From Deltaproteobacteria bacterium (GTDB lineage Bacteria; Desulfobacterota; DSM-4660; Desulfatiglandales; HGW-15): a DNA stretch of 64,000 bases. Each line of letters begins with the position of its first letter. Position 1 is the first letter of the stretch. The position numbers were made by a program, and so were the translations under genes. Location: contig JAFDEF010000001.1 in assembly GCA_019310485.1 (NCBI GenBank), positions 13,289 through 77,288 of the forward strand, written 5' to 3'. The notes under the pieces were generated by a model. The model searched no databases. It saw only the letters and a program-made list of their open reading frames with translations, and was not told the DNA's origin. Below, piece by piece: positions 28,152-60,041 of the stretch.

Positions 28152-28195
28152 AAACCTCCTGCGTAGATATTCGTTTATGAAAGAAAATTAAGGAA

Positions 28196-29248
28196 TTAAG
28201 CTCCTTGTGGTTCTACGATGACCTTGACCGATTCATGTTCAATGGGCGAGGCGACCATCATAAAAGCCTTGGTCGCTTCCTCAAGGCTGAGCCTGTGAGT
28301 GACAAGCTCTGTCACGGGCACTGCCTTTGCCCTGATCAGCTTGAGCGCTTTCATGCAATCTTTGGGACTTCCCGCATAAGTGCTCGTCAAGGTTATCTCA
28401 GTCCTCCAGAAAAGATCATTAATAGTTGCAGGTATGGTAGCCCCTTCTGAGGCTCCTGCAAAGAATAGAACCGTTCCCCCCCGTTCAACGCTCTTAAGCG
28501 CAAGGGGGATAAAGCCGTCAAAGCAAATAATGACCAAATCCGCCAGATATCCATCATTTATTTTTCTTACCCTGTCCACTATCTCTTCATTGGCTTCAAA
28601 TGTAACGTGAGCTCCAAGCTTGCCGGCCATCTCGAGTCGAAACAGGATTGTGTCAGCACCTATTACAAGTCCCGCTCCAAGAGCGCGAGCCAGCCCCACA
28701 TGAAGCAAGCCTGAAATCCCACATCCCAAAACAAGCACGGTTTGACCCGCTCTTAGCCTTGCATTTTTTTGACCTCTAAGCACACAGGCCAGGGGTTCCA
28801 TGAAGGATGCTTCCTCGTAGGACACGCTATCGGGAATCTTGAACACTCCTCTATCCACGTTTATGGCTGGAACCCTCACATATTCTGCAAAGCCCCCTGG
28901 ATCGAAATGTGTGCCCCTCAACAGGGTTTCGCACACAGTGTGGTGCCCGTTGAGGCAATAGTGACAGGTATTGCAGGGCACATGGTGAGTTGCGGCGATT
29001 CTGTCGCCTTCTCTAAACCTATCTACGCCTTCGCCCACACGAACAACATTTCCCGCCACCTCATGCCCGAGCACGAGGGGAACCTTGTCTCGCCTGTACC
29101 ATTCCATTACATCGCTGCCACATATGCCGCTTGCAATCACTTTCATGAGCAGCTCACCTGGACCTATTTGTGGAACAGGTATCTCCTGTACACGAACATC
29201 CCTGTTACTGTAATACATCAATACCCGCATGAGTTTGTCATCAGCCAT
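28196..29248 (-). CDS. Zinc-dependent MDR alcohol/polyol dehydrogenase (sorbitol/threonine dehydrogenase-like)
   Basis: 350 aa. Catalytic Zn site GICGSDV...LGHEVAGNVV, structural Zn cluster CNTCHYCLNGHHTVC and Rossmann fold VLVLGCGISG. Confidence 0.8.
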   Translation of the reverse strand: MADDKLMRVLMYYSNRDVRVQEIPVPQIGPGELLMKVIASGICGSDVMEWYRRDKVPLVLGHEVAGNVVRVGEGVDRFREGDRIAATHHVPCNTCHYCLNGHHTVCETLLRGTHFDPGGFAEYVRVPAINVDRGVFKIPDSVSYEEASFMEPLACVLRGQKNARLRAGQTVLVLGCGISGLLHVGLARALGAGLVIGADTILFRLEMAGKLGAHVTFEANEEIVDRVRKINDGYLADLVIICFDGFIPLALKSVERGGTVLFFAGASEGATIPATINDLFWRTEITLTSTYAGSPKDCMKALKLIRAKAVPVTELVTHRLSLEEATKAFMMVASPIEHESVKVIVEPQGA

Positions 29249-29320
29249 CGGAAGGCGCTCTCAATCCGGCTTCGCCCGCTTCTTCCACGGGCACCTGCCA
29301 ACCCAGGTATGGATAAAACC

Positions 29321-30205
29321 CTATTTCAGTGATTCAAACAGGTCCAGGGCCTGTTTTGGATTCAGGCCTTCGTGGACAATCCCGCTTAGTGCCCTCATCA
29401 TGGCTACCGGATGAGGGTTCTGCCAGACGTTTCTCCCAAGGTTGATACCTATGGCTCCCTTTTTCATACCATCATACACGAAGTCAAAGACCTCAAGCTC
29501 TGTTTCGCATTTCGGGCCGCCGGCAATGACCACGGGGACGGGACATCCGTTGGTGACCTTGTCAAAATCCTCTTTGCAATAGTAAGTCTTTACGATTTTT
29601 GCGCCGAGCTCTGCTGCAATACGGCAGCTGAGCGCAAGATAGCGCGCAGTTCTCTTTTCCAACTCCTTGCCCACCGCAGTAACTGCCATAACGGGTATAC
29701 CGTAATCCTCGCATTCATTTACGATCTGGGCAAGACTTTCCAGGGTTTCCTTTTCGTACTCGCTTCCCACAAATATGGAAAGCCCAACGGCCGCCACGTT
29801 CAACCGGATAATTTCTTCTATTGAAGTGGTCAAAACTTCATTTGCCAGATCCTTGCCTATGACACTTGTTCCTCCGGATACCCGTAGAATAATTGGGGTT
29901 TGCACGTCAGGATCAATGGAAGAGCGCAAAACACCTCGCGTAACAAAAAGGCCGTCAGCGTAAGGGAGAAGCTCCCTGACCGTCTCCCCTGGTCTTTCAA
30001 GACACCTTGTAGGTCCCTGAAAATAGCCGTGGTCAATGGGGAGAAACTGGCAATGCCCGTCTTCTCTTATAAGGCGTGAAAGTCGATTTCTCATTCCCCA
30101 ATCAAGGCTTCCTGCCCCCTTTATCCATTTGCCTTCTGCTCTTGTCTGCTCTTCAGGCATTTCGGATACACCCCTGGCTTCCTGGATTTTATCTGCATCA
30201 GCCAT
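29321..30205 (-). CDS. DhnA/class I aldolase family protein, LsrF-like (aldolase/thiolase)
   Basis: 294 aa. Motifs DWGMRNRLSRL, LPIDHGYFQGPT, FVGSEYE, Schiff-base Lys context AKIVKTYY, CPVPVVIAGG and NPHPVAMM. RBS GGGGAGGGAG lies upstream. Confidence 0.75.
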   Translation of the reverse strand: MADADKIQEARGVSEMPEEQTRAEGKWIKGAGSLDWGMRNRLSRLIREDGHCQFLPIDHGYFQGPTRCLERPGETVRELLPYADGLFVTRGVLRSSIDPDVQTPIILRVSGGTSVIGKDLANEVLTTSIEEIIRLNVAAVGLSIFVGSEYEKETLESLAQIVNECEDYGIPVMAVTAVGKELEKRTARYLALSCRIAAELGAKIVKTYYCKEDFDKVTNGCPVPVVIAGGPKCETELEVFDFVYDGMKKGAIGINLGRNVWQNPHPVAMMRALSGIVHEGLNPKQALDLFESLK

Positions 30206-30411: not shown

Positions 30412-30615
30412 TTAATGTTGGTTGGTCGATATTACGGCTTTGGGGTTCCTTATGGCCTCTGGAGCAAAGACCGCGGCAATTGCCTCAGGCATCTGTGCAA
30501 GAGTTTTAAAACCCCCAATTTTGAAGGGTGACCAGTCCTTCCTACTAACACAGCATGGAAGTTCAATCCATGGATGATTAGTATTGAGAGATAATTGGCT
30601 CTTTTCATAAGCCAT
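30412..30615 (-). CDS. Hypothetical small protein (67 aa from ATG 30615)
   Basis: The ORF overlaps the AcnX small-subunit stop by about 11 nt (MAYEKSQLSLNTNHPWIELPCC...). No recognisable motif. It would be the last gene of the AcnX-containing unit. Confidence 0.25.
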   Translation of the reverse strand: MAYEKSQLSLNTNHPWIELPCCVSRKDWSPFKIGGFKTLAQMPEAIAAVFAPEAIRNPKAVISTNQH

Positions 30616-31021
30616 CTTTGTTTCGAATTTCGATATAGCCCTCATTCGCATTAATTCTCACGAAATCCCCGTCTTCGATAAATTCAAACGGATCTTCTTC
30701 CAGGTCATGGACCATAGGAGTTTCGGTGATGATCGCACTGACCGCCACGACGCCTTCTGCCTTTACGTTAATTATTCCCCTGGGTGCATGACCACGCTTG
30801 TAGGCGGCATAAAATTGCCAAGAACCTGTTGTTGAACCCTTCCCTGTGGGGAAAACAAGGATTTTGCCAGCCACGCTCCTACCCTCAAGCTCATGACCCG
30901 GTTCCCTTATAATACCCGTGTCAGGATCCATGCCACCGGTAAACGATATGGCTGTGCGGGAAACAATGGCTTCGCCTTCGGCGACCCCACCAGTCACAGA
31001 TTTTGCTCTAATTTTTCTCAA
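30605..31021 (-). CDS. Aconitase X swivel-domain protein (AcnX small subunit; former DUF126)
   Basis: VAEGEAIVSRTAISFTGGMDPDTGII...GKILVFPTGKGSTTGSWQFY. The preferred start is TTG 31021, preceded by GGAGGG and overlapping the large-subunit stop (ATTGA). The track ORF extends to 31084. Confidence 0.8.
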   Translation of the reverse strand: MRKIRAKSVTGGVAEGEAIVSRTAISFTGGMDPDTGIIREPGHELEGRSVAGKILVFPTGKGSTTGSWQFYAAYKRGHAPRGIINVKAEGVVAVSAIITETPMVHDLEEDPFEFIEDGDFVRINANEGYIEIRNKDGL

Positions 31022-32274
31022 TGGCGTCCCTCCCACCGTCCGGATATAGCTGCCTGCACGCACGCGCGGGTTGACCCAAAGCAAGTATCCATACCGAAAA
31101 GATTATGGGCATAATAACAGCCCCTGGCCGAATTCATTGCAATAACACGAATACCTTGCTCTTTCAGGTAAAGATGGGGGCCATCTGCCGCACCAACGTC
31201 AGCCACGATACGGGCACCTGAAGACTCGAGCTGTTCAAGCAAGCCCATCCTTTCACACAAGGTCTTTACCCATCTGGAGGTACAGATCCAAAGTTGCGTT
31301 TCAGCATGGAGTTTGTTGCTGCCTAACAATTGGGCAATCTCCTGCACCTCCTGGATGCTACACTGTGGACATCCGAAAATCACAAGATCCACCTTTTCCT
31401 CGGTGCAACTGGAAATCTCAGTGTAGGATTTGTCAACATCTTCCTGACGAACCACTATGTCTGGAGACGAAGGCGGGTTTTGGCCGAAAGCTTGCTCAAC
31501 ACTGCTGGCCTCCGGCGTTGTGCCGACTAAATGTACAAGCCCCATTGCGCCGGTTACAGTCAAAGAATAAAGAAGCCCTTTGATTGCCTCTATGGGCAAG
31601 TTGTTGGGCAAGTTGACAAAGACCGGGATTTTCGTACCGGCAATTTTCCCCAAATGCCACCCCAAGGCTTTGTAATCGCATGGATCGTAGTCCTCAAAAT
31701 CCAAAGATCCCACATCGATAAGAATCTCGCCCTTTCTATTTTGGGTAAGGTGCAACCCCCATTCCGGAATTGCACCCACAATAGCTGCAGCCAGGGCAAC
31801 GTGATCTCCGTCCCTATTAGACCTGGCTCCAATAACCGAATTAGCGAAAACCTGGCTCCCTGAAGAAGCCCATGCGATGTGGTCCCCGAACCTGGGGACA
31901 TTGCCCACCAGGTAGTGGTGGCACGAATAAGTAAGTGCAACACCCAGAGATTTTAGCGCCTCATGAATCCTTTTTTGCTTAGACCTCAGGCCGGCAGGGA
32001 CCTTTAGCTCATCAGCCTGTTCAAAGTCATACATTTCAGGGTTCTTGGTTGTAAACACCCTTACCCTGGTTCCATCACTTGCCAAATCCTCCAGCCACTC
32101 TATTCCCTCCTCCATAAGCACTGGATAATTACCGGCAATGTGAACGCTAGTAATGGTAATCAATCGTTCGGCTTCGTAGCACTCGCCGTAAGCAGCAAGG
32201 ATCTCCATCGCTTTTCGGGCACCGCGACCCTCTTTGCCGTCCAACATTTGCTTCTGATTTTCCGTGAGCTTCAT
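31018..32274 (-). CDS. Aconitase X catalytic-domain protein (AcnX large subunit; former DUF521)
   Basis: 418 aa, MKLTENQKQMLDGKEGRGARKAMEILAAYGECYEAERLITITSVHIAGNY. Length and N-terminus are typical of the family. Confidence 0.85.
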   Translation of the reverse strand: MKLTENQKQMLDGKEGRGARKAMEILAAYGECYEAERLITITSVHIAGNYPVLMEEGIEWLEDLASDGTRVRVFTTKNPEMYDFEQADELKVPAGLRSKQKRIHEALKSLGVALTYSCHHYLVGNVPRFGDHIAWASSGSQVFANSVIGARSNRDGDHVALAAAIVGAIPEWGLHLTQNRKGEILIDVGSLDFEDYDPCDYKALGWHLGKIAGTKIPVFVNLPNNLPIEAIKGLLYSLTVTGAMGLVHLVGTTPEASSVEQAFGQNPPSSPDIVVRQEDVDKSYTEISSCTEEKVDLVIFGCPQCSIQEVQEIAQLLGSNKLHAETQLWICTSRWVKTLCERMGLLEQLESSGARIVADVGAADGPHLYLKEQGIRVIAMNSARGCYYAHNLFGMDTCFGSTRACVQAAISGRWEGRH

Positions 32275-32317: not shown

Positions 32318-33814
32318 TCAGACTTTATATTTCCGAAGTTCCCGCTTCAAGATCTTTCCCTGAGGGGTTTTGGGCAGGTCTTCCATGAAAATGACCCTCT
32401 TAGGGGCTTTGTAAGACGCCAGCCTCTCCTTACAAAACTTGATAAGCTCATCTGCGGTGGCTTTGCGGCCTTTCTTAAGGCGTACAAAGGCGGTCACGGT
32501 CTCCCCGTATTCTTTGTCCGGGAGCCCTGCAACGCCGCACTCTTCAACAGCATTGTGCTTATAAAGCACATCTTCCACTTCAGAAGGATATACGTTCAAC
32601 CCCCCGCTTATGACCATATCCTTTATCCTGTCGATTATGTAAAGATAGCCGTCCTCATCCATTCGGCCGAGATCCCCCGAATGAAGCCAGCCTCCATCCA
32701 TGGCCTTTGCACTTTCCTCCGGTCTATTGAAATATCCTTTCATAACATTGGGTCCCTGGATAAGGATTTCTCCCTCTTCTCCAACGCCAAGTTCATTTCC
32801 ATCCTGGTCTGCAATCTTCACTTCAGCGAGACCAGCAGGCGTACCCACCGACCCAACTTTGTGCCTGTATAAATGGTTGAAAGTGACTAGGGAGGATGTT
32901 TCAGTCATGCCATAGGCTTCATAAATGTTCAGGCCGAACTTATCCTTCCATTGCCTAACGACTTCTGAGGGCATACTCGTTGCCGCCGAAAACGAATAGC
33001 CGACAGATTTCAAGTGCTTATGACAGTGGGGGTTATTGAGAAAGCGGATGTAAACCGTTGGAACCGCGTACAAGCGTGTCACCTTGTTTGACTCGATTGA
33101 TGAAATAATTTCATCCATTTCAAAGCCTTTATGCAAAACCAGAGTCGCGCAGGCATAAAACATTGAGTTCATTATGTGACAACCCGCAAAAACATGATTT
33201 AAGGGCATAAAACAAAGACCTGCATCCCCGGAAGTGGTTCTTTCATGAAAGCAAACATTCTGAGCCGTGTAGAGGAGATTCTTATGGGTAAGCATTGCTC
33301 CTTTGGGTATGCCCGTCGTTCCCCCTGTGTATAAGATCACGCACGTATCATCAGGCGCACAATTAATGCTCTTGAATGGAGCCACTTTGCTTCCCCTAAC
33401 CTCGCATAAAGTTGATAGGGTACTGTCTTTTTCGATAATGAGTATATCCTTAATATATGGTAGCTTTTCACTCACCGGCACGTTTGGTAGAAGGGACTCA
33501 CTGGTCACCAGCACGACAGGTTCAGAGTCGCGAAGTATGTGCTCCAGCTCAAAACTTTTGTAAGCAGCACTCACGCATACCGCAATGGCACCCAGCCTTA
33601 TCATCCCGTAGTAAATCATAATCCACTCGGGCCTGTTACCGGCATACAGTGCTATCCTATCACCTTTGCTGATTCCCAGTTCTCTAAAATAGGACGCTAC
33701 AACACTAACACACGCATCCAGTTCCCTGTATGTAAAGGCCTTATTCCCGTATACAACAGCCTTCTTCTCAGGGAAATACTTGGCTCCCTGGGTCACTACG
33801 TCAGAAAGATTCAT
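32318..33814 (-). CDS. AMP-forming acyl-CoA ligase (ligase 1)
   Basis: 498 aa. AMP-binding motifs ILYTGGTTGIPKGAMLTHKN, YGMTETS and GWLHSGDLGRMDEDGYLYIIDRIKDMV. Confidence 0.85.
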   Translation of the reverse strand: MNLSDVVTQGAKYFPEKKAVVYGNKAFTYRELDACVSVVASYFRELGISKGDRIALYAGNRPEWIMIYYGMIRLGAIAVCVSAAYKSFELEHILRDSEPVVLVTSESLLPNVPVSEKLPYIKDILIIEKDSTLSTLCEVRGSKVAPFKSINCAPDDTCVILYTGGTTGIPKGAMLTHKNLLYTAQNVCFHERTTSGDAGLCFMPLNHVFAGCHIMNSMFYACATLVLHKGFEMDEIISSIESNKVTRLYAVPTVYIRFLNNPHCHKHLKSVGYSFSAATSMPSEVVRQWKDKFGLNIYEAYGMTETSSLVTFNHLYRHKVGSVGTPAGLAEVKIADQDGNELGVGEEGEILIQGPNVMKGYFNRPEESAKAMDGGWLHSGDLGRMDEDGYLYIIDRIKDMVISGGLNVYPSEVEDVLYKHNAVEECGVAGLPDKEYGETVTAFVRLKKGRKATADELIKFCKERLASYKAPKRVIFMEDLPKTPQGKILKRELRKYKV

Positions 33815-33893
33815 ACCTCATCCCTCCGAACCAAGACAAATGCTTCATTTCAAATAAGGTCACCAATCCTATTGATGCCTCCAATCTCTTCAA

Positions 33894-35348
33894 TCATTCA
33901 CCGAGGGACCTTACGTATTCTGCGGCGTTTTCGCCAGCTATCCGCCCGCTATTCAGCGCAAAACCCATCGTATTGCCTGGCAAAATAAAGACATAACTGT
34001 CACCGTATATCGTGCATGCATCAGTTCCCACGGCGTATAGACCCGGGATCACTTTCCATTCCTTGTCCAGCACCTCAGTCCTATGGTTGATCTTGATACC
34101 TCCAAGGCTTCCATATGCACTCGGAAAATGCTTTGCGGCGTAGAATTTAGGGACCTTGACGGGCCGGAGATACCTGTGGTTTTTGTTAAAAAGATTGTCA
34201 TACCCTTTCTCGCAACATTCGTTATATTCATCTACCGTTCTGTGTAGACCGGAGGCATCAATCCCAGTTTTCTTGGCCAATTCTTCCAGTGAATCGGCCA
34301 CATATATTTCCCTAAACCCCTGGTCAAGCGCATTCTTGATCGCCACGTCCATATTTTCAATTTTCATAAACGGGAAAACAACGCTGATGTTATCAAACCC
34401 CACCGTCTCCATATGTTTTTTCGTATTTTCATCAAAAATGAGAAACGCACATCTTCCCTTTTGCCTGGAAATCGCGTTTCCTGTATAGGTGGTGTTCGCC
34501 ATAATGGCCTCATCCATAAAACGCTCCCCCAAAAGGTTAACCATAAGGTGGGGCTGCCGTAAGGCCGCTTGAAGGTTGGGCTCAAGCTGTTTGGAGAAGC
34601 CGTAGATGAGTTCCATAGTCATCTCAGTTGGAGCCGCCCCCACTTCCCATGCCATTTGGATGCCATCCCCATTCAAACCGGGAATTCGAAAAGGGAACAG
34701 GTCACGCCCGCAATCGAAACCGGTAAATTTTTTGATTATTTCTGGATTATCGCCAAATCCGCCCGTGGCCACAATTACTGCTTTTGCCTTTGCTTGGATG
34801 GGCTGCCCGGATTTGTCTTCGGCGATAACACCTGTAATCCGACCACCTTCCCTCTGGATTTTCCTGGCCGGTGTTCTTAGCAGGATGTCGACCCCAAGTT
34901 GTTTAGCACGATCAGTCATGATTTTAGTCATAGTCGCCGAGGCCATAGGGCCAGGCTGACCACTGGCCGGTTTTACCAAATGCCAAGTAAAATGAGCCCC
35001 CCGGAAATAGGCTGCTGGCTCGACAAATTCAACGCCCATCCTCTCCAACCAGTCGATCGTATCCGCCGATTTGTTTAGATACGCCCTCACCAGCCTGGCA
35101 TCAACACGCCAGTGCGTATATTCCATAAAAGTTCTAAATGCCTCATCTTTTGTGGGACCATGCTGCTTCAGGCGCTGCAGCCGGCTTTCAACTGCGAGAG
35201 GCCCCATCCCCATATTTCCTGCTCCTCCTGTCCTGGGGGCTTTTTCAAAGACGATGACATTGACTCCACCCTCAGCGGCGGCTATGGCTGACGCCAAACC
35301 GGAAACACCGGCTGCAATCACTACAACATCGGCCTTTAACTCCTTCAT
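33894..35348 (-). CDS. FAD-dependent oxidoreductase, fumarate reductase / 3-ketosteroid dehydrogenase-like flavoprotein
   Basis: Dinucleotide fold ADVVVIAAGVSGLASAIAAAEGG, plus VIVATGGFGDN and C-terminal IPGLYAVGTDA. ATG 35348 (MKELKADVVV, RBS GGAGGAAG) is preferred over the track start 35450. Confidence 0.8.
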   Translation of the reverse strand: MKELKADVVVIAAGVSGLASAIAAAEGGVNVIVFEKAPRTGGAGNMGMGPLAVESRLQRLKQHGPTKDEAFRTFMEYTHWRVDARLVRAYLNKSADTIDWLERMGVEFVEPAAYFRGAHFTWHLVKPASGQPGPMASATMTKIMTDRAKQLGVDILLRTPARKIQREGGRITGVIAEDKSGQPIQAKAKAVIVATGGFGDNPEIIKKFTGFDCGRDLFPFRIPGLNGDGIQMAWEVGAAPTEMTMELIYGFSKQLEPNLQAALRQPHLMVNLLGERFMDEAIMANTTYTGNAISRQKGRCAFLIFDENTKKHMETVGFDNISVVFPFMKIENMDVAIKNALDQGFREIYVADSLEELAKKTGIDASGLHRTVDEYNECCEKGYDNLFNKNHRYLRPVKVPKFYAAKHFPSAYGSLGGIKINHRTEVLDKEWKVIPGLYAVGTDACTIYGDSYVFILPGNTMGFALNSGRIAGENAAEYVRSLGE

Positions 35349-35591
35349 TGTTCTTCCTCCCCGTATAATATTTATTCCCGCCGCACGCGGCGTGACCAAA
35401 CGCTGGAGCTGACGAATCTTCCATGCTAACCACCCTAGCGTCGTTAACATGGAAGAACCGCAGCTCAGCTCGGCATAGACCTTGCTTATCTTTATATCTT
35501 CACCTCAGCCGTATCTAAGGCCAGAAATATGGATCAACACTGTCTCTGTTGCCTGCACCGAAAGGATTACACTGACTGATAAATATGTTAA

Positions 35592-35867
35592 TCAGTTTCT
35601 TGGAGGCGGATATTGACCGCACATAAGCGACGCAGAGATTTCCTGAAAGTTCATGGCCGCACCACTAAATCCTAGTACTAAGCATCCTATCTGTACCACC
35701 TTTAAATCCTCCCCATCCGAAATGTTGCCACTGTTTTCATAGACTATGTGCTGCACAGTTCTGCCCACGCGAACTTCACTCGCATGAACGATAGGGTTTC
35801 TTAAAAGCATATAACAGGAACACGGCCAAGCTTTTCGCGGCACCCCCGAGACCTTCTTTTTGCTCAC
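35592..35867 (-). CDS. Hypothetical protein (GTG start)
   Basis: 91-aa ORF co-directional between the SnoaL-like and FAD genes. Weak RBS and no motif recognised. Confidence 0.25.
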   Translation of the reverse strand: MSKKKVSGVPRKAWPCSCYMLLRNPIVHASEVRVGRTVQHIVYENSGNISDGEDLKVVQIGCLVLGFSGAAMNFQEISASLMCGQYPPPRN

Positions 35868-35882
35868 CTCTGAAAAAAGGAA

Positions 35883-36482
35883 TTATTCCTCCGGCTCAGG
35901 CGGAAGAGGCAAGAATTGCCCGTCTTGAGCAGGATCATAAGGCGCGTATATGGGGCTAACCGGAGGTTGGCCTTCGTGAGTAAGGCTACCTATAATTGGC
36001 ATCTTCACCCAGCCCTTATCAAACGGTGTTCTAAATATCACATACCACTTGAACACACGGTATTTCCATTTCCCCTCCTCTTTAGTAAATTCAATGTCAT
36101 ACTTGCCGGACTGCCACATGGCGACCAGCCCATCCTCGGTCTGAATGGTGTTACAACCAAAGGAGTGCCACATGCCCCTTGCGGTTTGACCATCTCTGGC
36201 TACTTCTACAACAGGGGTCATCAGCATATGGAGGGCCAGACCGCCAGCGAACTTATATTTCTCCCCCAGGATCTTGAACAACGTCATCACGCCTTCAAAA
36301 CCCTTATATTCGCCGCTGTCAGCCAGCTCTACTCTTACGCCCGGGTCTTTTTTAGAAAACATGTCCAGGATTTTATCGTACCTGTTGGACAGAATATAAT
36401 GATTATATCTGCCCTGAAGATTGCAGATGTCCCGGTAATCTTCTAAATGGGCGATCCGTGCTTCCAGATCTTTCTGTGTCAT
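35883..36482 (-). CDS. NTF2-fold / SnoaL-like protein
   Basis: 199 aa. The N-terminal LEDYRDICNLQGRYNHYILSNRYDKILDMF pattern and the length fit SnoaL_4-type NTF2 proteins. Confidence 0.6.
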   Translation of the reverse strand: MTQKDLEARIAHLEDYRDICNLQGRYNHYILSNRYDKILDMFSKKDPGVRVELADSGEYKGFEGVMTLFKILGEKYKFAGGLALHMLMTPVVEVARDGQTARGMWHSFGCNTIQTEDGLVAMWQSGKYDIEFTKEEGKWKYRVFKWYVIFRTPFDKGWVKMPIIGSLTHEGQPPVSPIYAPYDPAQDGQFLPLPPEPEE

Positions 36483-36579
36483 GGTGCACCTCCAATCTCG
36501 TTTTACTGTGACCGCTCTTCTAATTGCGCCATCCAGAAAAAACAGACATTAACGCTATCAGTGCAATTGTCAGTTAGAA

Positions 36580-37050
36580 TCACGGACTTACAATGTTACC
36601 GTACACGTTGTGTTTCTTTTTCAATTCTTGCACTTTTTCATGATCTTCTTGAAAGTACTTTACATGCTTCTGTTTTATTTCTTCCAGATGCACCGAAACC
36701 CCATGCGGGGAAAACCGGGGATGTTTCCCATCCTCCTGATTCCACTCCACCTTGATTTCGTCTCCTTCCCCAATTAGAACACTGTAAACATTGCATAAGG
36801 GGAAACAGCGTACGGCAATCTTTCGGGCGCCTTAAGAAGCACCCCCATGCCCTGTGCACCTCCTTGCAGGCCCTGGGGCACCCCTTGACAGGATGCGCCC
36901 CGTGAGATCGTGGACAAATAGAGAGATGTTGGGATTTAATGGCAAGGCTCCCAAACGCCCGGTATCTGGCCATATGTTCGAGGATGCCCAAGCACTGCTC
37001 CAGGGATTGAAGTTCACAATTGAATACTTAGGCCAGCTCGTGAAATTAGG
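36580..37050 (-). pseudogene. Decayed, frameshifted C-terminal fragment paralogous to the flavoprotein at 37207..38127
   Basis: One minus-strand frame gives RCFPLCNVYSVLIGEGDEIKVEWNQEDGKHPRFSPHGVSVHLEEIKQKHVKYFQEDHEKVQELKKKHNVYGNIVSP*. The intact gene reads FCPVCWVRGKVHMEGTEMKVTWDEESKRIPRFSERGVFSHLDLIKNLQKTFYENEDKVKEMKKKYEHYGNIVRPQAG. Upstream matches (VLLKAPERLPYAV vs VLKVPGRLPEVF; EHMARYRAFG vs EYIERARKLG; VNF) fall in other frames, separated by stops. Confidence 0.6.
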
Positions 37051-37206
37051 TGAATGACCAATAAGCATCTTTGTAAAGGCCTATTTGCAGAGGCTTTCGA
37101 ACTACTTTATATTAGCGGCTGTGATCATCCCCTCTCCAATCTGGCTTCCATCCACGGCGATAGTGCTCTTTCCCATGGCTATCGATGCCTCTGATTGAAG
37201 GCCTTT

Positions 37207-38127
37207 TCAGCCTGCTTGAGGCCTTACGATATTGCCGTAATGCTCATATTTCTTTTTCATTTCTTTCACCTTGTCCTCGTTCTCGTAGAAAGTCTTCTGA
37301 AGGTTCTTGATCAAATCCAGGTGGCTGAATACACCCCTCTCTGAGAACCGGGGTATCCTCTTGCTTTCCTCATCCCATGTTACCTTCATCTCTGTGCCCT
37401 CCATATGGACCTTACCCCGGACCCAGCATACAGGACAGAAAACTTCAGGAAGTCTCCCGGGCACCTTCAACACATTGCAGTGACACACTGGGCAGGAAAC
37501 GGCGCTATCTTCTCCCATGTATCGCACCTCCTCTATGGGCATCATCATGGCCGCCGCAACATTCCTCCCCAGTTTCCTCGCCCTTTCAATATACTCTGGG
37601 TGAAGTAACACAGAGGCTGGCCTCCCACAGAAGTTCACCTGCATCTGGTCCACCAGCCGCCAGGAATGCTGAACGAAGATGTTCGCTGAGGTGAGGCCCA
37701 GAGGCGTCCACTCTGGCTCTCCACCTCCCACGCTAATAATGCCACCCACCTTGTTCTTTTTTAAGATCTCGGGGTGCTTAAACATGACGGGGAGCATCCT
37801 CTCATGTATGCATTCGAAGTAGCCATTCGCCCTGAGGTGATAGAGGGGGTGGGCGAGGATAAAGCCCGCATCCTCCAAAAGGACCTTCTCGAGGATCCAG
37901 GGGACATCATCGTCCTTGATCGCGCAAACGGGTTCCTTACCCCGGACCATGAGCATAGTGCACGTCTCACACCCTTTACAAGGCTTTACTCTAAGTTCCA
38001 TTGCACGAATGATTTCCGATTCCACTCCAAGTTCTTCCGCGCCCATGAGCGCCTCTTTCAAAAGGCATTCAGAATTGCCGTTCTTCCTCCCGCAGGACAA
38101 CCCGATAATCTTTTTCTTCTTAGTCAT
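37207..38127 (-). CDS. Isf-like iron-sulfur flavoprotein with C-terminal CxxC-x15-CxxC extension
   Basis: 306 aa. Flavodoxin-like N-terminus IIGLSCGRKNGNSE, cysteine cluster CKGCETCTMLMVRGKEPVC, and an extra tail of about 110 aa with CPVCHCNVLKVPGRLPEVFCPVCW. Confidence 0.75.
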   Translation of the reverse strand: MTKKKKIIGLSCGRKNGNSECLLKEALMGAEELGVESEIIRAMELRVKPCKGCETCTMLMVRGKEPVCAIKDDDVPWILEKVLLEDAGFILAHPLYHLRANGYFECIHERMLPVMFKHPEILKKNKVGGIISVGGGEPEWTPLGLTSANIFVQHSWRLVDQMQVNFCGRPASVLLHPEYIERARKLGRNVAAAMMMPIEEVRYMGEDSAVSCPVCHCNVLKVPGRLPEVFCPVCWVRGKVHMEGTEMKVTWDEESKRIPRFSERGVFSHLDLIKNLQKTFYENEDKVKEMKKKYEHYGNIVRPQAG

Positions 38128-38258
38128 TTGCGCCTCCTTTCTTCTTTTATTAATCTCAATTATCTTGCACTCGACAACCTCTTTTCAGAGGAAGTAATGT
38201 CCTTATGAAGCAGCGTCCCTTTTGCAATTCTCTTACATTGTCTCAAACTTCAGTGCGG

Positions 38259-38843
38259 TTACTTGCTACCCGTCTGCTTCCCATAGAGATTAGGCAGAAA
38301 ATCAGCTAGCGTGCCCATCTCTTCGATACAATGCCGCATCAGCCCGGCACCTGCCATGTCGGGGGCCCCAAAAAGCCAGAATCGGCTTCGCATCGCACAT
38401 CCATAGTCGGTATCACGGACAAAATGGATGACCATCCCATTTGGGCTTTCATCAGGATTATATGCTTTTCCGCAAATAACAGCCCCCACATTAGCCTCTT
38501 CAAACCTCGAGATATCAAAAAACTCAGAAGGGTCGTGAAAACGGATCCTAACCTTTAAGACAGACCCTCCCATATTTTCTTCGATCGTGTGGCTAGCACC
38601 GATATAGTGCCCGGGCTTCCAGTGTTGGTCCCACTCCAGGGACATGTGGGCCTTCGGGTGCCACTTTTTGTAAGTTTCGGTGCCGTCAAGATATCCGAAC
38701 CACCAGTCAACCATTTTCCCCTTACAGCCGGGCATTCGGGTCAAAACCCTCACGTGCATTTGCCCATTAGGCAGACGGAAGTACCCGGTTTCTATGGATT
38801 GATAACCGCGGTCCAGGAGTTGATTTACTTCTTCAATTAGCAT
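38259..38843 (-). CDS. DAPG hydrolase / phloretin hydrolase-like protein (putative Zn-dependent C-C hydrolase)
   Basis: MVDWWFGYLDGTETYKKWHPKAH, GHYIGASHTIEE, RSRFWL and C-terminal RHCIEEMGTLADFLPNLY (HxxxE) match my recollection of the PhlG/Phy family. ATG 38843 (RBS AGAGGGA) is preferred over the TTG at 38909. Confidence 0.5.
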   Translation of the reverse strand: MLIEEVNQLLDRGYQSIETGYFRLPNGQMHVRVLTRMPGCKGKMVDWWFGYLDGTETYKKWHPKAHMSLEWDQHWKPGHYIGASHTIEENMGGSVLKVRIRFHDPSEFFDISRFEEANVGAVICGKAYNPDESPNGMVIHFVRDTDYGCAMRSRFWLFGAPDMAGAGLMRHCIEEMGTLADFLPNLYGKQTGSK

Positions 38844-38905
38844 TGTTTTCCCTCTTTCTGTTTTTATTGTGGATATTTTTCGGAACACGACCTTCACGTT
38901 CCGTT

Positions 38906-39880
38906 TCAAAATCCCTTCCTACAGTTTTCTCCAGTCTCACATAAGCCCCTGCCAACACGACTGATTATCTGGCGAATTCGACTTACAGAGCCAACGAGCC
39001 CGTAAGGGAAGTACATCACCACCAGAATGAACAGGAGCCCAAATATGATAAGATGCGCCTCTCCCAAAGTGAGAGCAAATATCTCTGAAAGGACCACCAG
39101 GAAAATACTGCCTATAACAGGACCAATTAATGTGCCGCTACCCCCGATGACGGCTGCCATGAGCGGCTCAAATGTCCAGATTGGGCTAAAAACCGCGGTA
39201 ACGTAATGAAATGAGAGCCGCATGAAAGCATAGACCCCTCCGCCCAAGCCAGCTAGGAACGCACTAATCAGTAAGGCGTAGACTTTATATTTAAAGCTAT
39301 TCACACCGGTAACCTGGGCTGCTTGCTCACTGTCCCGGACCGCAACCATCCCCAGTCCCAGCTTGGAGCGGGTTATGAAATACGTTACAGCTATTGCGGC
39401 AAACGCCACTGTCAAACCAAGGTAGTACCGGGGAATAAGGCTATAGCTGGCAGCATAGGACCCCGGCATTTCGATCATCCTCTCAAAAATATTGCCCACC
39501 ACTATCCTACACACCTCTGCCAATGCAAAGGTCCCAATAGCAAAGTAAGCGCCCTTCAGCCTCAGAGTCGGCAGACCTATAATCCCTGCTAAAACCACTG
39601 CTGATAGACCTCCCGCGATTACAGCAAGGTAAATCGGCATCTCAGCCTTCCACACAAAATGGGTAACCAGCACCCCACAACCAAAAAAAGCAGCAAGGCC
39701 CAGATTGATCTGCCCTGTATAGCCACCTATGATATTCCAACTTTGAGAAAGAATGACAAAAATAAACACCATAATGAGGAGGTTCAGGCTGCCCGTCCCG
39801 ATTTCTATAACCATAGGGGCTGCCATAAAGGCTAAAACTAACAACCCAATTACGAGAAGTCTCTTCCAATCAGGCAACAT
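38906..39880 (-). CDS. Branched-chain amino acid (HAAT) family ABC permease, LivM-type (set 1)
   Basis: Multi-TM protein with GYTGQINLGLAAFFGCG and LRLKGAYFAIGTFALAE. ATG 39880 is preferred over the track start 39982. Confidence 0.85.
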   Translation of the reverse strand: MLPDWKRLLVIGLLVLAFMAAPMVIEIGTGSLNLLIMVFIFVILSQSWNIIGGYTGQINLGLAAFFGCGVLVTHFVWKAEMPIYLAVIAGGLSAVVLAGIIGLPTLRLKGAYFAIGTFALAEVCRIVVGNIFERMIEMPGSYAASYSLIPRYYLGLTVAFAAIAVTYFITRSKLGLGMVAVRDSEQAAQVTGVNSFKYKVYALLISAFLAGLGGGVYAFMRLSFHYVTAVFSPIWTFEPLMAAVIGGSGTLIGPVIGSIFLVVLSEIFALTLGEAHLIIFGLLFILVVMYFPYGLVGSVSRIRQIISRVGRGLCETGENCRKGF

Positions 39881-39890
39881 GCCGGATCCC

Positions 39891-40769
39891 TTACTCCCTT
39901 TTCGCAAATAATCCCTGTGGCTTGAACATAAGGACCAATACAAACACGAGAAGAGCAATAGCCTGGCGATAGGGAACACCAAAAATCAGAACACTCCCCG
40001 CCTCCAGCAATCCATACACCAAACCGGCGGGAATAATGGCATTGATATTGCCTTCTCCGGCAAGTACCATGACCACGAAAGCTATTAGGAGCCACCCTAT
40101 TCCACCAGATGCACTGATGGAATAGCTCGAAACGATAACCGCGCCGGCCACGCCGGCCAGCGCTATCGCAATACCGGTGGAAATTAAATACACGCGTTGA
40201 ACATTAACTCCGCATAAGCTGGCCGCCTCGGCATCCTGTGTTGCCGCACGGAGATGTTTACCAAAGTAGGTTCTGCTGAGAACAGAATACAGAGCCAATC
40301 CTACCAGGACAGCTATGCCCACACCGCACAGACCGGTAAAACTGAATCTCGCTCCGAAAAACCTAAATGTCTCCCCTGTGTAAGAGGTAAGTATAGTTCG
40401 AACATTGGGGGTCCACAGCATGGTCATCGCGTTATCAAGCACCCAAATTAAACCAAAGGTAATCAACATAGAAGTATCAATCCGCATTCCAACGTCCGGT
40501 AATTTTAGCAACGGCGATAACGCCAACCTATAGAAGACCAAGCCAATTAAAAACATCGCAATCATTACCAGGGGTATTGAAAGGAAAGGATCTATACCCC
40601 ATAGATTGAAAAGCCAGAAGCTTAGATACCCACCAAGTATTATGAAGGTGCCATGAGCAATATTGAGAAATTTCATCACTCCCATGAGCAGGCCAAGCCC
40701 CAGCGCCACCAGCCCATAGAGTGCGCCCGCCAAAAGCCCATTGGCGATAGTCTGGAGCACAAACTCCAT
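39891..40769 (-). CDS. HAAT family ABC permease, LivH-type (set 1)
   Basis: 292 aa. MEFVLQTIANGLLAGALYGLVALGL...NIAHGTF, typical of LivH. Confidence 0.85.
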   Translation of the reverse strand: MEFVLQTIANGLLAGALYGLVALGLGLLMGVMKFLNIAHGTFIILGGYLSFWLFNLWGIDPFLSIPLVMIAMFLIGLVFYRLALSPLLKLPDVGMRIDTSMLITFGLIWVLDNAMTMLWTPNVRTILTSYTGETFRFFGARFSFTGLCGVGIAVLVGLALYSVLSRTYFGKHLRAATQDAEAASLCGVNVQRVYLISTGIAIALAGVAGAVIVSSYSISASGGIGWLLIAFVVMVLAGEGNINAIIPAGLVYGLLEAGSVLIFGVPYRQAIALLVFVLVLMFKPQGLFAKRE

Positions 40770-40772
40770 AAA

Positions 40773-41501
40773 CTACCCTGCCTTTTCCTCTGCGCCGATG
40801 CCCAAATATGTTTCTTTAATGCGAGGGTTGCATAACATTAACTTTGCATCGCCTTGGTCCACAATCCGCCCATTTTCCATGATATAGCCGCGACTAGCCA
40901 TAGACAAAGCCAATTCAATGTCCTGTTCGACGAGCAACACCGCTAATTTCCTCAACTTGTTTATGCCCTGAATAACTCCAGAGAGCTCTTGAACCACAAT
41001 AGGACTCAGGCCCAAAGACATCTCATCAATCAAGAGCACTTTGGGCACTGACATAAGCGCCCTACCTATAGCTAACATCTGCTGCTCTCCACCGCTAAGT
41101 GTACCTGCTTTTTGTTTGGCTCGCAGCTTTAGGGGAGTGAAAAACTCGTATATCCACTCGAGTGTGTTTTGCCTGGTCTTGCGTGCGGCATTAGTGGAAG
41201 CGCCCACTTCCAGGTTCTCCAAGACGCTCATCTGTGGAAATATTCTCCTACCTTCGGGAACCATGGAAATCCCTAGCTCCACAATGTGGTGCGCGGGTAA
41301 ACCATCAAGGCGTATGTTGCCAAAATCAATGTGCCCGGCTCGAACTTTGAGCAACCCGGAGATGCTTTTCATGACAGTGCTTTTGCCCGCACCATTAGAA
41401 CCAAGAACCGCCACTATTTCACCGTCCCCAATCCTCAGCGAGACATCCCATAGCGCCTGAATGTCGCCATAATAGACATCTATATTACTAATTTGTAGCA
41501 T
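40773..41501 (-). CDS. HAAT family ABC ATPase, LivF-type (set 1)
   Basis: 242 aa. Walker A GSNGAGKST, signature LSGGEQQMLAIGRAL and Walker B LLIDEMS. Confidence 0.9.
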   Translation of the reverse strand: MLQISNIDVYYGDIQALWDVSLRIGDGEIVAVLGSNGAGKSTVMKSISGLLKVRAGHIDFGNIRLDGLPAHHIVELGISMVPEGRRIFPQMSVLENLEVGASTNAARKTRQNTLEWIYEFFTPLKLRAKQKAGTLSGGEQQMLAIGRALMSVPKVLLIDEMSLGLSPIVVQELSGVIQGINKLRKLAVLLVEQDIELALSMASRGYIMENGRIVDQGDAKLMLCNPRIKETYLGIGAEEKAG

Positions 41502-42225
41502 ATGGCTTCTTACCTAAATATGCCCTGATAACCTCGGGATTGTTTACAATTTCCTCTGGAGCACCATCAGCAATTTTCCGGCCAACTTCTAATACCACCA
41601 CCCTGTCCGAGATCCCCATTATAACTTTCATTACGTGCTCAACGACTATCAGACTTATCCCGGAATCTCTAATTGCCTTTACCAACGCTATGGCGTTGTC
41701 CAGCTCCGCTGGATTCAAACCTGCCATCATCTCATCCAGTAATAACAATTTGGGCCTTGTCGCTAGCGCCCGCGCAATTTCCAGCCGTTTGCGGTCCACC
41801 AGACTAAGCATTCCTGCCATCCCTGAGTGCTTATCCCCCAGACCGGTGAAAGCCAAAAGCTGTTTTGACTCTATGCGTGATTGCTTTATGTTCCGAGCTG
41901 GCTGGCTACCATGGGCCCTGCCCACCATCACATTTTCGAGTGGAGTTAGCCGACTAAAGGGCTTAACTAGCTGAAAAGTTCTGGCTATGCCGCTCTGGCA
42001 TATCTTGTAAGAAGCCATTCCGGTGATATCCTTATTATCAAACCTTATTCTACCGGTATCAGGTTTTAGAACTCCTGTTATTGTATCAAACAAAGTGCTT
42101 TTACCTGAACCGTTGGGACCAATAAGTCCCAGTACCTCTCCCTGGTCAAGGCTAAAGCTTAGCCTATTGATAGCCAGGACACCACCAAAAGCCTTTGATA
42201 GGTTCTCAACCTCAAGTAGTTTCAT
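41488..42225 (-). CDS. HAAT family ABC ATPase, LivG-type (set 1)
   Basis: 245 aa. Walker A GPNGSGKST and Walker B LLLLDEMMAGLNP. Confidence 0.9.
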   Translation of the reverse strand: MKLLEVENLSKAFGGVLAINRLSFSLDQGEVLGLIGPNGSGKSTLFDTITGVLKPDTGRIRFDNKDITGMASYKICQSGIARTFQLVKPFSRLTPLENVMVGRAHGSQPARNIKQSRIESKQLLAFTGLGDKHSGMAGMLSLVDRKRLEIARALATRPKLLLLDEMMAGLNPAELDNAIALVKAIRDSGISLIVVEHVMKVIMGISDRVVVLEVGRKIADGAPEEIVNNPEVIRAYLGKKPYATN

Positions 42226-42335
42226 GTTTTGCCTACGCTTTGTGGTTGGGCTTCATTTTCTGCTCTGAAGCTTGGTCCAGGTCAACTCAGCTTAATCTAA
42301 TCGGCACCATAGAGTATTCGCATCTAATTTCCACA

Positions 42336-43541
42336 CTACCTTGGAATGGGATATACTAATTTCTTTGTTTTCATATCATTGGGCCACACCATCTCCATTA
42401 CTCCTTTCTGCCATTGAGTAACCACCGGAGGGGCATCAATTCGCCGGCCTTTGTTGTTGAATTTGATCCGGCCAAAAACGGTCATCGTGTCAATGCCAGC
42501 AATGGCATCCCTGATCTTACTTCTCTCCAACGTGCCAGCTTTTTCTATAGCGGCTGCTGCTATCTGAATCGAGGCGTACGCGTTTCCTACAACGATGTGA
42601 GTTCTTTTCCCAAACTTTGCTTTGTATTCAGCGTTAAGCTCTTTAACCCCGGGGCAGCTTAATGCGGGATGCCAGTCGGGACATCCTATTACGTAATCGC
42701 CCATTGGACCTGTCATCTTTGCCCAGGCTGGATCATCAGAGCCCCTTATCATTATGATACCCTTTGGATTGTAACCAAGCTCCCTCATTTGTCTAAGCAT
42801 CATAATACAATCAGGAGGGACAGGGGCAGAAAAGATCACCTCGGCACCGGCTTTTTTTGCTGCAAAGATGAGTGGGCTCATGTCCCGAGCCAGCATCGGA
42901 TACTTACTGTGAGATACAAATGTAACACCATTGGCAGGCGCCTTCTTTCTAGCAAGATTGAACAATTCCGCAATCCAGTCGCTCTGCTCTTCCCAAACAG
43001 CCCACCTGCTTGGCCTTTGGTCTTTGGGGATATTTGCGAAAGCTGCAAATATTGCATCCACGATCCCATCGTTCATCTTGCTGATACCAAAGTAGTATTT
43101 AAAGCCCCTTTCAAAAAGCCCAACATTTGTTACTAAAGAGGTTATGGCAGGCAACTTATTCTTTTCAAAGATATCAGAAGTTGCGCTCATCAAGGTGGTA
43201 CCACAAACAACAGATGCTTTTCGTTGATTCAGTACTTCTGCACGGGCAACAGCCTTCTCCGGGTTTGTTTCCATGTCCATGATCAAAAGTTCAAGAGGTA
43301 TTTTTTTACCATATTCCTTGACATAGACGCCACCACCCTTGTTTATTTTTTCCACCGCCATTTCGTAGCCAATTTCCGCTGGCTTTCCTATCATGGCATC
43401 TGGCCCAGTAAAGGAAACCAAAATACCAATCTTAATGGTTTTGGGTACCTCCGCTTGAGCATAAGCGGGCACAAAAGACAACATGGTCAGCACGACTATC
43501 ACAAGAATACCAACCGACATTATTAGCAGTCTTCTTTTCAT
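42336..43541 (-). CDS. Periplasmic substrate-binding protein, LivK/Peripla_BP_6 type (set 1)
   Basis: 401 aa. Signal peptide MKRRLLIMSVGILVIVVLTMLSFVPAYAQA, then IKIGILVSFTGPDAMIG. Confidence 0.85.
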   Translation of the reverse strand: MKRRLLIMSVGILVIVVLTMLSFVPAYAQAEVPKTIKIGILVSFTGPDAMIGKPAEIGYEMAVEKINKGGGVYVKEYGKKIPLELLIMDMETNPEKAVARAEVLNQRKASVVCGTTLMSATSDIFEKNKLPAITSLVTNVGLFERGFKYYFGISKMNDGIVDAIFAAFANIPKDQRPSRWAVWEEQSDWIAELFNLARKKAPANGVTFVSHSKYPMLARDMSPLIFAAKKAGAEVIFSAPVPPDCIMMLRQMRELGYNPKGIIMIRGSDDPAWAKMTGPMGDYVIGCPDWHPALSCPGVKELNAEYKAKFGKRTHIVVGNAYASIQIAAAAIEKAGTLERSKIRDAIAGIDTMTVFGRIKFNNKGRRIDAPPVVTQWQKGVMEMVWPNDMKTKKLVYPIPR

Positions 43542-43849
43542 TACTTTACCTCCTCCCCGCGATAAGATCGCTCGATAATAGATTTCTCTAATTGCAGACT
43601 CAGCCTTTCTATGCCTTTTGAATTATCACCCCCAATCTTCAGTCAATATTCTGCGGTTTAAAATTGAGTTTGAAATTACCTACCCTCTCCTTTTGTTCAT
43701 GGGAGATGGGCCTCTTCTTTATAAATTTCTTTGGCAATCAGCGGCCATAATCTTAATAACAAGGTAAACTATATGACAAGCTTGTTTTTTAATAGCAAAC
43801 TATCAGGAAGAAACTATACATTATTGGCTTACATAATGCCGAAGAACGG

Positions 43850-46668: not shown

Positions 46669-46749
46669 CTTTCATATCCTCCTTTCTGCTTTGTAATTTG
46701 GTTCATACCATACGAAAAACACACTTTTCTTGCACCTGATCACCTCCCT

Positions 46750-47805: not shown

Positions 47806-47808
47806 AGG

Positions 47809-48696: not shown

Positions 48697-48707
48697 TGAA
48701 AAGCTCT

Positions 48708-50633: not shown

Positions 50634-50649
50634 ATCCCCACGCCTTTTA

Positions 50650-51450: not shown

Positions 51451-51489
51451 TATCCCCGATTCTGGTTAAAAACGCTAACGCCTACCTGT

Positions 51490-52314: not shown

Positions 52315-52661
52315 CGAATCTTGCCTCCAATCTCTTTCTGGTGAAAATAAAAGGGCCAGTGCGCACTTTGAGATAATATTCGGGCAGCCATCTATTCCGG
52401 GTTCCTGCAAACGATTACGCCCCGGACCTTAACTTAAGTAATTAGGATTTCTTTTCAAAAGAGGGCCTTTGTGACCGGGTTGCAACAAAATACCGCTCAT
52501 TTCTCTCAATTCACTATATCATGCGGCCTCAAAAACTGCAGCAATGCTTTTCCCCTCTCCAAAATGAATGCACCTGATGGGGCATACCCCCATGCATGCA
52601 GGCTCTTCACCCTGGGCGAGCCTCTCCGCAACACGCTTCCACTCATCAAGTTCTTCATAAA

Positions 52662-53546: not shown

Positions 53547-53626
53547 ATCAACCTAAAGACTTTCAATGGCTTTTCTCTTGAGGCAAGTTAATCTTGCCTT
53601 ATCTCTTTACACAGAATCCAACGGTT

Positions 53627-54964: not shown

Positions 54965-54965
54965 T

Positions 54966-55598: not shown

Positions 55599-55722
55599 AG
55601 CATTAGCCTCCTTTTGGAATTTTTCAAAAACGCCTTAACAGTACCCACAAATGAACTCCCAGTTTCACCGACACGCCACCCCGCTCAGACATAGCTTTTA
55701 AATCACATGAAACCTGGGGTTC

Positions 55723-60037: not shown

Positions 60038-60041
60038 ACCT

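Follow-up and report, generated by a model that had tools for sequence, protein, structure and literature searches.

Anaerobic breakdown of plant polyphenols bears on carbon storage in peat and sediment, and on the 'enzyme latch' debate. To our knowledge, the anaerobic flavonoid enzymes described so far are from a small number of gut Firmicutes. The gut pathway of Flavonifractor plautii and Eubacterium ramulus consists of flavone reductase (FLR), chalcone isomerase (CHI), an enoate reductase (Fcr) and phloretin hydrolase (PHY) (PMC7862272, PMC10470551). Here we describe a 64-kb stretch of DNA from an uncultivated deltaproteobacterium (hereafter the window; coordinates are window positions), in which the block at 33894-45184 is probably a polyphenol-utilisation module that would import a flavonoid-type substrate, open its C ring reductively and hydrolyse an acyl-phloroglucinol. 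Like the gut pathway, the window has homologues of FLR and phloretin hydrolase. Unlike it, the window has neither CHI nor an OYE-type enoate reductase and carries NTF2 and FAD_binding_2 proteins instead, its hydrolase lacks the N-terminal ~60 residues, a Liv-type importer and a PAS-LuxR regulator are attached, and the host is an uncultivated deltaproteobacterium.

A second described system is the phloroglucinol cluster of Clostridium scatologenes, with PGR, DPGC, TfD and TAL (PMC10470551). Short homologues of the window hydrolase adjoin a DPGC-type cyclase, SDR and 3HCDH genes in many genomes, whereas PGR-, DPGC-, TfD- and TAL-type genes are absent from the 64-kb window. That DAPG_hydrolase genes lie beside phloroglucinol clusters in sulfate reducers and rhizobia has already been noted (PMC10470551), and CAMPER already searches environmental genomes for PHY, CHI and FCR. 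A literature search found no description of the short hydrolase clade, of the FLR-like/FAD/SnoaL_4 combinations, or of their spread in Desulfobacterota, Dehalococcoidia and Bathyarchaeia. Nor did it find any pathway of such composition, in agreement with a first-pass annotation of this DNA that had proposed a flavonoid-type degradation module.

Every module gene is on the minus strand and at the position given by that annotation. In the direction of transcription the order is PAS-LuxR regulator, Liv-type importer, hydrolase, FLR-like gene, a gap of 724 nucleotides (nt), SnoaL_4 gene, a gap of 534 nt, FAD_binding_2 gene, AMP-ligase, AcnX large subunit and AcnX small subunit. The features from the regulator to the FAD_binding_2 gene are as follows; L088 is the closest related locus.

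43850-45184, minus strand: PAS-PAS-LuxR(GerE) transcription regulator (Pfam PAS_3, PAS_9, GerE)
38906-43541, minus strand: Liv-type ATP-binding cassette (ABC) importer, whole (Pfam Peripla_BP_6)
42336-43541, minus strand: binding protein of the Liv-type importer
41488-42225 and 40773-41501, minus strand: ATPases of the Liv-type importer
39891-40769 and 38906-39982, minus strand: permeases of the Liv-type importer
38259-38843, minus strand: short-form hydrolase, 194 residues (Pfam DAPG_hydrolase PF18089, E 4.3e-45, 154 bits against a cut-off of 22.7)
37207-38127, minus strand: FLR-family FMN protein, 306 residues (Pfam FMN_red, E 2e-7)
36843-37143, minus strand: pseudogene, fragments of a 702-residue NuoG/GltD-like Fe-S flavoprotein (73% nucleotide identity to L088 11150-11447)
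36580-36801, minus strand: pseudogene, C-terminal ~74 codons of a second FLR-type gene (protein similarity to FLR-like C-termini)
35883-36482, minus strand: SnoaL_4/NTF2-like protein, 199 residues (Pfam PF13577, E 2e-17)
35349-35882, no strand: spacer of 534 nt containing an open reading frame of 91 residues, without detectable homologue
33894-35348, minus strand: FAD_binding_2 reductase, 484 residues (Pfam PF00890, E 7e-58)

Pfam profile searches confirmed the domains that the first-pass annotation had named for the AMP-ligase, the 484-residue FAD enzyme and the SnoaL/NTF2 protein. Its placement of the 194-residue protein in the PhlG/phloretin hydrolase family was borne out by the PF18089 match, by PDB matches to phloretin hydrolase 5xe5 of Mycobacterium abscessus (E 3e-22) and PhlG 3hwp (E 4e-15), and by the predicted fold. 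An AlphaFold2 (AF2) model built on 29 homologues had a pLDDT of 94.4, and its top Foldseek matches were 5xey/5xe5 (TMq 0.87-0.88), with PhlG 3hwp at 0.79, in a Bet v1-like fold. His66, Glu89, His171 and Glu175 align with PhlG His129, Glu160, His270 and Glu274, the four zinc ligands of PhlG. Among the 29 homologues His66 and His171 are invariant and Glu175 is at least 90% conserved, while the Glu89 column varies in a few members.

In its PF18089 domain, its Bet v1-like fold and its aligned H/E/H/E ligands, the protein is like the phloretin hydrolases (M. abscessus 5xe5/5xey, E. ramulus Phy) and Pseudomonas PhlG (3hwp). It differs from them in length (194 against 274-300 residues, at 29-32% identity) and in lacking both their C-terminal insertion and their N-terminal domain of ~60-70 residues, so that the match begins at chain residue ~61 in Phy and ~73 in PhlG. 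The short form is 193-206 residues long in the homologues, which share the same N-terminus. Orthology to PhlG was ruled out by the score against the NCBIfam equivalog NF047887, 66 bits with a cut-off of 600. Judged by its sequence, the protein is a member of the PhlG/phloretin hydrolase family and not an orthologue of a characterised enzyme, and we propose that it is an acyl-phloroglucinol (phloretin-type) hydrolase. The PF18089 superfamily, short and long forms together, has 1046 representatives at E <= 1e-3 among 1.84 billion cluster representatives.

In some proteins of ~470 residues (P0364, P0372, P0373, P0386, P0389 and P0393) a short hydrolase domain is fused to a C-terminal region of ~280 residues with a CxxC...CxxC motif. 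This region had no Pfam match and no similarity to any pathway protein. The fusions were rejected as a Rosetta stone for the pathway, their C-terminal zinc-finger region looking transposase-like by eye.

The 306-residue protein had been labelled Isf-like. Its FMN_red domain stands, but the label is imprecise, as the protein is a full-length homologue of FLR. Its sole PDB match was 7d38 (E 5.8e-34, residues 6-294 against 2-298), the F. plautii flavone reductase that initiates flavone and flavonol catabolism (PMC7862272). Identity to FLR is 33%, both Cys motifs are kept with eight conserved cysteines, and the full architecture is retained, with an FMN_red N-domain, two C-terminal subdomains and a tail. 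His271, Ile275, Thr279 and Lys282 are the substrate-contact or catalytic residues of FLR (PMC7862272), and the first two are kept. We propose the protein as a candidate flavone-type ene-reductase. Its orthologues are 90% (L088) and 74% (L091 and L094) identical, and the environmental FLR-like family to which it belongs is large and annotated only as 'WrbA' or 'flavodoxin'.

We then compared the block with related loci. Short hydrolase relatives numbered 430 in a scan of species-representative genomes, from Desulfobacterota, Dehalococcoidia, Bathyarchaeia, Binatia, Myxococcota and Alphaproteobacteria. Gene neighbourhoods were counted in 80 such genomes, comprising 25 closer and 55 more distant, mostly alphaproteobacterial, loci. 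At least one flavonoid-type partner gene was present in 9 of the 25 closer loci, many of whose contigs are short. The loci most informative for the comparison are these:

L091/L092: orthologous importer, hydrolase, OYE-type Fe-S enoate reductase, FLR (74%), chalcone isomerase, second hydrolase
L093: importer, hydrolase, OYE-type reductase, SnoaL_4 protein (199 residues, 67%)
L094/L095: FLR-like gene (divergently transcribed), hydrolase, OYE-type reductase, SnoaL_4 protein (199 residues, 68%)
L022 and L028: Mo-oxidoreductase, OYE-type reductase, SnoaL_4, Zn-dependent alcohol dehydrogenase (Zn-ADH), FLR-like gene, hydrolase; L028 adds an acyl-CoA synthetase and a second SnoaL_4 gene
L024: two CHI-like genes, FLR-like gene, SnoaL_4, FAD reductase, hydrolase
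L001, L014, L031, L118 and archaeal L025: hydrolase with FMN_red or FLR-like gene and FAD reductase
L002: FAD and SnoaL_4 genes with a 4-nt overlap

In the environmental loci L091/L092 the four enzyme types of the gut pathway are all found together, the chalcone isomerase there matching that of E. ramulus (PDB 3zph) at E 1e-36. Orthologues of the window's hydrolase, FLR-like protein, SnoaL_4 protein and importer, 64-74% identical, share loci with true CHI and OYE-type reductase. The hydrolase is combined with FLR-like, FAD, SnoaL_4 or CHI-like genes in L022, L024, L028, L009, L002, L001, L014, L031, L025 and L118. The importer binding protein is 64% identical to that of L091 and 54% to that of L093, each heading its cluster, and identity to the L088 importer is 72-81% across the components. 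These comparisons upheld two proposals of the first-pass annotation. The first is a functional logic shared with gut flavonoid degradation: true CHI, OYE-type enoate reductase, FLR and the same importer are present in the orthologous loci. The second is a dedicated importer, which is conserved with the module in L088, L091 and L093. A third, that the components are largely unrelated to the gut-anaerobe enzymes, did not hold, as the FLR-like and the PHY-like protein, two of four catalytic components, have homologues among those enzymes. Co-occurrence of the gene set in related genomes was found in part: hydrolase, FLR-like, SnoaL_4, FAD and importer genes recur in varying combinations, whereas the CoA ligase/AcnX set stands apart.

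The more distant loci point to the product. In 29 of the 80 genomes, 25 of them in the distant group of 55, a DPGC-type cyclase is encoded no more than 10 kb from the short hydrolase; the same holds for an SDR gene in 32 of the 80 (29 in the distant group). DPGC and SDR are among the genes of anaerobic phloroglucinol pathways (PMC10470551), and the short hydrolase family is therefore tied to phloroglucinol as product. Because orthologous loci hold CHI and OYE-type reductase, and because distant hydrolases adjoin phloroglucinol-degradation genes, the flavonoid/acyl-phloroglucinol reading is well supported by locus context. An earlier idea of a resorcinol reductase with a 1,3-cyclohexanedione hydrolase, for which the literature offered a single mention of the enzyme and no known gene, was dropped given the FLR and CHI context.

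Two further gene arrangements were seen around the short hydrolase. In L052-L087 (Alphaproteobacteria) the order is DPGC-type cyclase, cupin, SDR, 3-hydroxyacyl-CoA-dehydrogenase-like gene, short hydrolase and Liv-type binding protein; this order is found in Rhizobium, Bradyrhizobium, Mesorhizobium and relatives. Older reports claimed that rhizobia split flavonoids to phloroglucinol. In about ten loci (L005-L007, L011, L017-L019, L023, L030, L043, L048), archaeal ones among them, an aldehyde:ferredoxin-oxidoreductase-family gene adjoins the short hydrolase, sometimes with a ThiS-like gene.

The sole structural relatives of the 199-residue SnoaL_4 protein by sequence are the LdpA diarylpropane lyases of Novosphingobium/Sphingobium (PDB 8abt-8abw; 8abt, E 1.4e-18). 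LdpA acts via a quinone methide, and its catalytic residues are an Asp40-His97 dyad, Glu143, Tyr35 and Tyr147, the two tyrosines forming a phenolate oxyanion hole (PMC9942872). Like LdpA, the window protein belongs to the NTF2-like fold family and keeps Tyr35, His97 and Tyr147. Unlike LdpA, it has 199 rather than 251 residues, Asp40 and Glu143 are replaced, and its genomic context is flavonoid-type, not lignostilbene-type. LdpA identity was ruled out, since the Glu143Gln mutant of LdpA is inactive (PMC9942872) and the window protein has this very change. By inference it may be a p-hydroxyphenyl-binding acid/base catalyst, and we propose it as a putative quinone-methide-forming C-ring lyase or isomerase. 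Its 199-residue orthologues in L093 (67%) and L094 (68%) follow the hydrolase and enoate reductase genes.

The FAD_binding_2 protein resembles flavocytochrome c fumarate reductases in the PDB. The fumarate-site residues of Shewanella Fcc3 are His365, Arg402, His504 and Arg545; the FAD enzyme has Tyr, Ala, Tyr and Tyr at these positions. Loss of all four fumarate-binding or protonating residues ruled out fumarate reductase identity, and the predicted pocket would suit a non-carboxylate aromatic substrate. The top NCBIfam family was vinyl phenol reductase VprA (NF053717), at 338 bits over the full length with a cut-off of 600. Like VprA of Lactiplantibacillus plantarum, the enzyme has the FAD_binding_2 architecture and its full-length top match is to that family; unlike VprA, it scores under the equivalog cut-off, which ruled out orthology, and belongs to an uncharacterised environmental clade. 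This clade is very large, 67-73% identical internally and carries automatic annotations only. Homologues of 482-484 residues fit the length of the enzyme, and orthologues with 66-70% identity are found in L088, L001, L014, L031 and L118. We propose it as a candidate chalcone/quinone-methide (vinylphenol-type) reductase. A comparable case by description is the benzyl ether reductase Ber of Eggerthella lenta, which like VprA is a fumarate-reductase-like flavoenzyme that acts on p-hydroxyphenyl compounds. Ber is paired with a LuxR-family regulator (10.1101/357640), a pairing also seen in the window.

On the basis of these results, we propose the following route, in which the catalytic steps from the FLR-like protein onward are drawn from family, residues and gene context, and the regulator and importer steps from conserved gene position. 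The PAS-LuxR regulator would sense the substrate, and the Liv-type ABC system would import it as a flavone, flavanone or dihydrochalcone. The FLR-like FMN protein would reduce C2=C3 of a flavone-type enone. The LdpA-like NTF2 protein would then open the C ring of a 4'-hydroxy-flavanone via a p-quinone methide or chalcone, and the VprA-like FAD enzyme would reduce this quinone-methide or chalcone intermediate to a dihydrochalcone. Finally, the short Zn hydrolase would split the aryl-ketone C-C bond by a retro-Claisen reaction, giving phloroglucinol and a phenylpropionate.

In the window the NTF2 protein stands where orthologous loci have CHI, and the FAD reductase where they have OYE-type enoate reductase. 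It is conceivable, though we hold it only tentatively, that the two form an undescribed flavanone C-ring-cleaving pair that replaces, without homology, CHI and the Fe-S/OYE enoate reductase, with cofactor-free opening through a p-quinone methide followed by flavin reduction, and that the short hydrolases, which lack the N-terminal domain, are a separate environmental clade of phloretin-type C-C hydrolases found across Desulfobacterota, Dehalococcoidia and Bathyarchaeia. The role of the SnoaL_4 and FAD proteins as stand-ins for CHI and enoate reductase is the weakest step of the route, and a doubtful one.

The locus and its relatives suggest that the same pathway logic is encoded in uncultivated sulfate-reducer-like, Dehalococcoidia and Bathyarchaeia lineages. 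Three large protein families, which at present carry no annotation beyond 'WrbA', 'fumarate reductase' or 'hypothetical', become candidates for flavonoid assays. Annotation pipelines based on CHI and Fcr would miss the variant in the window.

The comparison also revealed what this copy lacks. The closest relative, L088 (FLR-like protein 90% identical, FAD reductase 70%, regulator and importer 72-81%), has the order regulator, importer, FLR, a 702-residue NuoG/GltD-like Fe-S flavoprotein, FMN_red and FAD reductase; in the window the hydrolase lies between importer and FLR-like gene. The 702-residue gene is intact in L088, and among related loci (L088, L001) intact copies exist of both genes that left debris in the window. 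Of the frameshifted remnant of the 702-residue gene tblastn recovered residues 67-147 only, in several frames. The second FLR-type remnant is 48% identical to residues 232-303 of the neighbouring FLR-like protein and 62% to the C-terminus of the L001 FLR-like protein. A tblastn search with the L091 proteins found neither CHI nor OYE-type reductase, nor any remnant of them, in the 64-kb window. The window copy is a mosaic variant of a modular locus family, one that, as its remnants indicate, has lost the neighbouring NAD(P)H-input Fe-S flavoprotein gene. A set recurring in L088 (10950-15598) and L001 (11569-16197) comprises a 702-704-residue NuoG/GltD-like Fe-S flavoprotein, a second flavodoxin-like/FMN_red protein and the FAD_binding_2 reductase, and resembles a chain that would feed electrons from NAD(P)H to the reductase.

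Several observations weigh against the flavonoid module as proposed. In the HMMER alignment the FLR-like protein has Leu for Thr279 and Thr for Lys282 of FLR, beside an indel, and the SnoaL_4 protein has Leu for Asp40 and Gln for Glu143 of LdpA. SnoaL_4 and CHI-like genes occur together in L009 and L024, and because both coexist there the SnoaL_4 protein may have a function other than that of a CHI replacement. Within the 64-kb window no genes of phloroglucinol degradation were found, and L088 has neither hydrolase nor SnoaL_4 protein. The gene row is loosely packed and is interrupted by two long gaps (36483-37206 and 35349-35882), one of them with pseudogene debris. A search of the intergenic regions for shared operator motifs, sigma54 boxes and palindromes found none in common.

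We weighed three other explanations. The same enzymes might act on non-flavonoid plant phenolics, such as lignin-derived dimers, stilbenes, hydroxycinnamates, curcuminoid or other beta-diketones or simple acyl-phloroglucinols, with the hydrolase cleaving a different beta-dicarbonyl. The best characterised relatives of two components, LdpA (lignin beta-1 dimer) and VprA (vinylphenol), speak for this, as do the corrinoid O-demethylase set upstream and the URO-D genes that accompany FLR-like genes in L001 and L090. However, the essential Glu143 and Asp40 of LdpA are not kept, true chalcone isomerase is found in clusters with orthologues of the window's hydrolase, FLR-like protein, SnoaL_4 protein and importer, and short hydrolases as a family are linked with genes of the phloroglucinol pathway; we regard this explanation as rather unlikely.

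It is improbable, in our view, that the main role of the reductases is that of an electron sink or of detoxification, with polyphenols reduced but no carbon assimilated, and that the hydrolase is a recent and loosely coupled addition. Such a role would agree with L088, where regulator, importer, FLR-like protein, 702-residue flavoprotein, FMN_red and FAD reductase are found without the hydrolase, and with the wide distribution of hydrolase-FMN_red-FAD triads. On the other hand, the hydrolase is intact and highly conserved and adjoins FLR-like genes in L001, L022, L028 and the window, and the electron-input gene has decayed in the window, a poor fit to a respiratory role. A decaying mosaic locus whose pathway function has been lost, as the debris at 36580-37143, the orphan 534-nt spacer and the loss of the 702-residue partner gene might suggest, is very improbable, given five full-length catalytic open reading frames with intact predicted catalytic or ligand residues, 64-90% identity to orthologues and purine-rich sequences like ribosome-binding sites before the hydrolase, FLR-like, SnoaL_4 and FAD genes.

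For expression of the polyphenol module, the PAS-PAS-LuxR protein is the probable regulator; its L088 orthologue is 78% identical and holds the equivalent position. The 91-residue open reading frame (35592-35867, GTG start), which the first-pass annotation had counted as a gene, gave no Pfam or NCBIfam match, and neither tblastx nor blastn found a counterpart of it in the related loci. We consider it unlikely to be a gene and treated it as non-coding. The 534-nt spacer around it showed no protein or DNA similarity in related loci and no Rfam match, and is possibly an internal promoter region. An Rfam scan of window positions 26-57 kb found no RNA family, and in a promoter and terminator scan the counts were not above those of shuffled sequence. 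The sole strong sigma70-like site of the region, at 30293-30264, lies upstream of an LsrF-like gene.

Downstream of the FAD reductase lie three genes that had been assigned to the module as CoA activation with AcnX:

32318-33814, minus strand: acyl-CoA ligase, 498 residues (Pfam AMP-binding, E 5e-92)
31018-32274, minus strand: AcnX large subunit, AcnXL (PF04412, E 6e-123)
30605-31084, minus strand: AcnX small subunit, AcnXS (PF01989, E 3e-30)

This assignment was not sustained. A search of metagenomes with AcnXL yielded 22 loci. Ten of these have a CoA ligase, 66-77% identical, immediately upstream of AcnXL-AcnXS, and none of the 22 had hydrolase, FLR-like, SnoaL_4 or FAD genes. Conversely, AcnX was in no short-hydrolase locus, and CoA-ligase matches near a short hydrolase were confined to four distant loci (<50% hydrolase identity) and were weak (26-32% identity). 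CoA ligase, AcnXL and AcnXS are a separate conserved trio outside the flavonoid-type module. The CoA ligase may take the phenylpropionate product, for which the locus comparison gives no support. The AcnX score against the cis-3-hydroxy-L-proline dehydratase equivalog was 245, below the cut-off of 700. The trio (loci L097-L112) has as neighbours either TRAP genes with an HTH-cupin regulator or genes orthologous to those of the Liv-type transporter upstream in the window (binding protein 76%, 649-residue synthetase 62%); in the window the regulator-to-FAD block sits between the trio and these conserved upstream-transporter partners. In L112 the trio directly follows genes for MarR, a corrinoid protein and two URO-D proteins.

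Beyond the trio, the minus strand at 26862-30205 encodes an LsrF-like DeoC aldolase/thiolase, a Zn-dependent dehydrogenase and a 429-residue class II aldolase, probably a separate sugar-phosphate unit. The LsrF-like, Zn-ADH and aldolase genes are conserved with neither the flavonoid-type module nor the trio, and locus comparison ruled them out, with AcnX, as module parts. On the other side of the module, the minus strand at 52662-56190 encodes a MarR regulator, a B12-binding protein, a URO-D-like methyltransferase and a pterin-binding methyltransferase, a set that looks like a corrinoid aromatic O-demethylase system. Two further Liv-type ABC transporters are encoded at 45412-52410, with an embedded 649-residue AMP-binding protein, and at 56795-63342, preceded by a 535-residue acyl-CoA ligase (plus strand). 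The presence of three Liv-type importers in the window suggests an aromatic-acid utilisation island.

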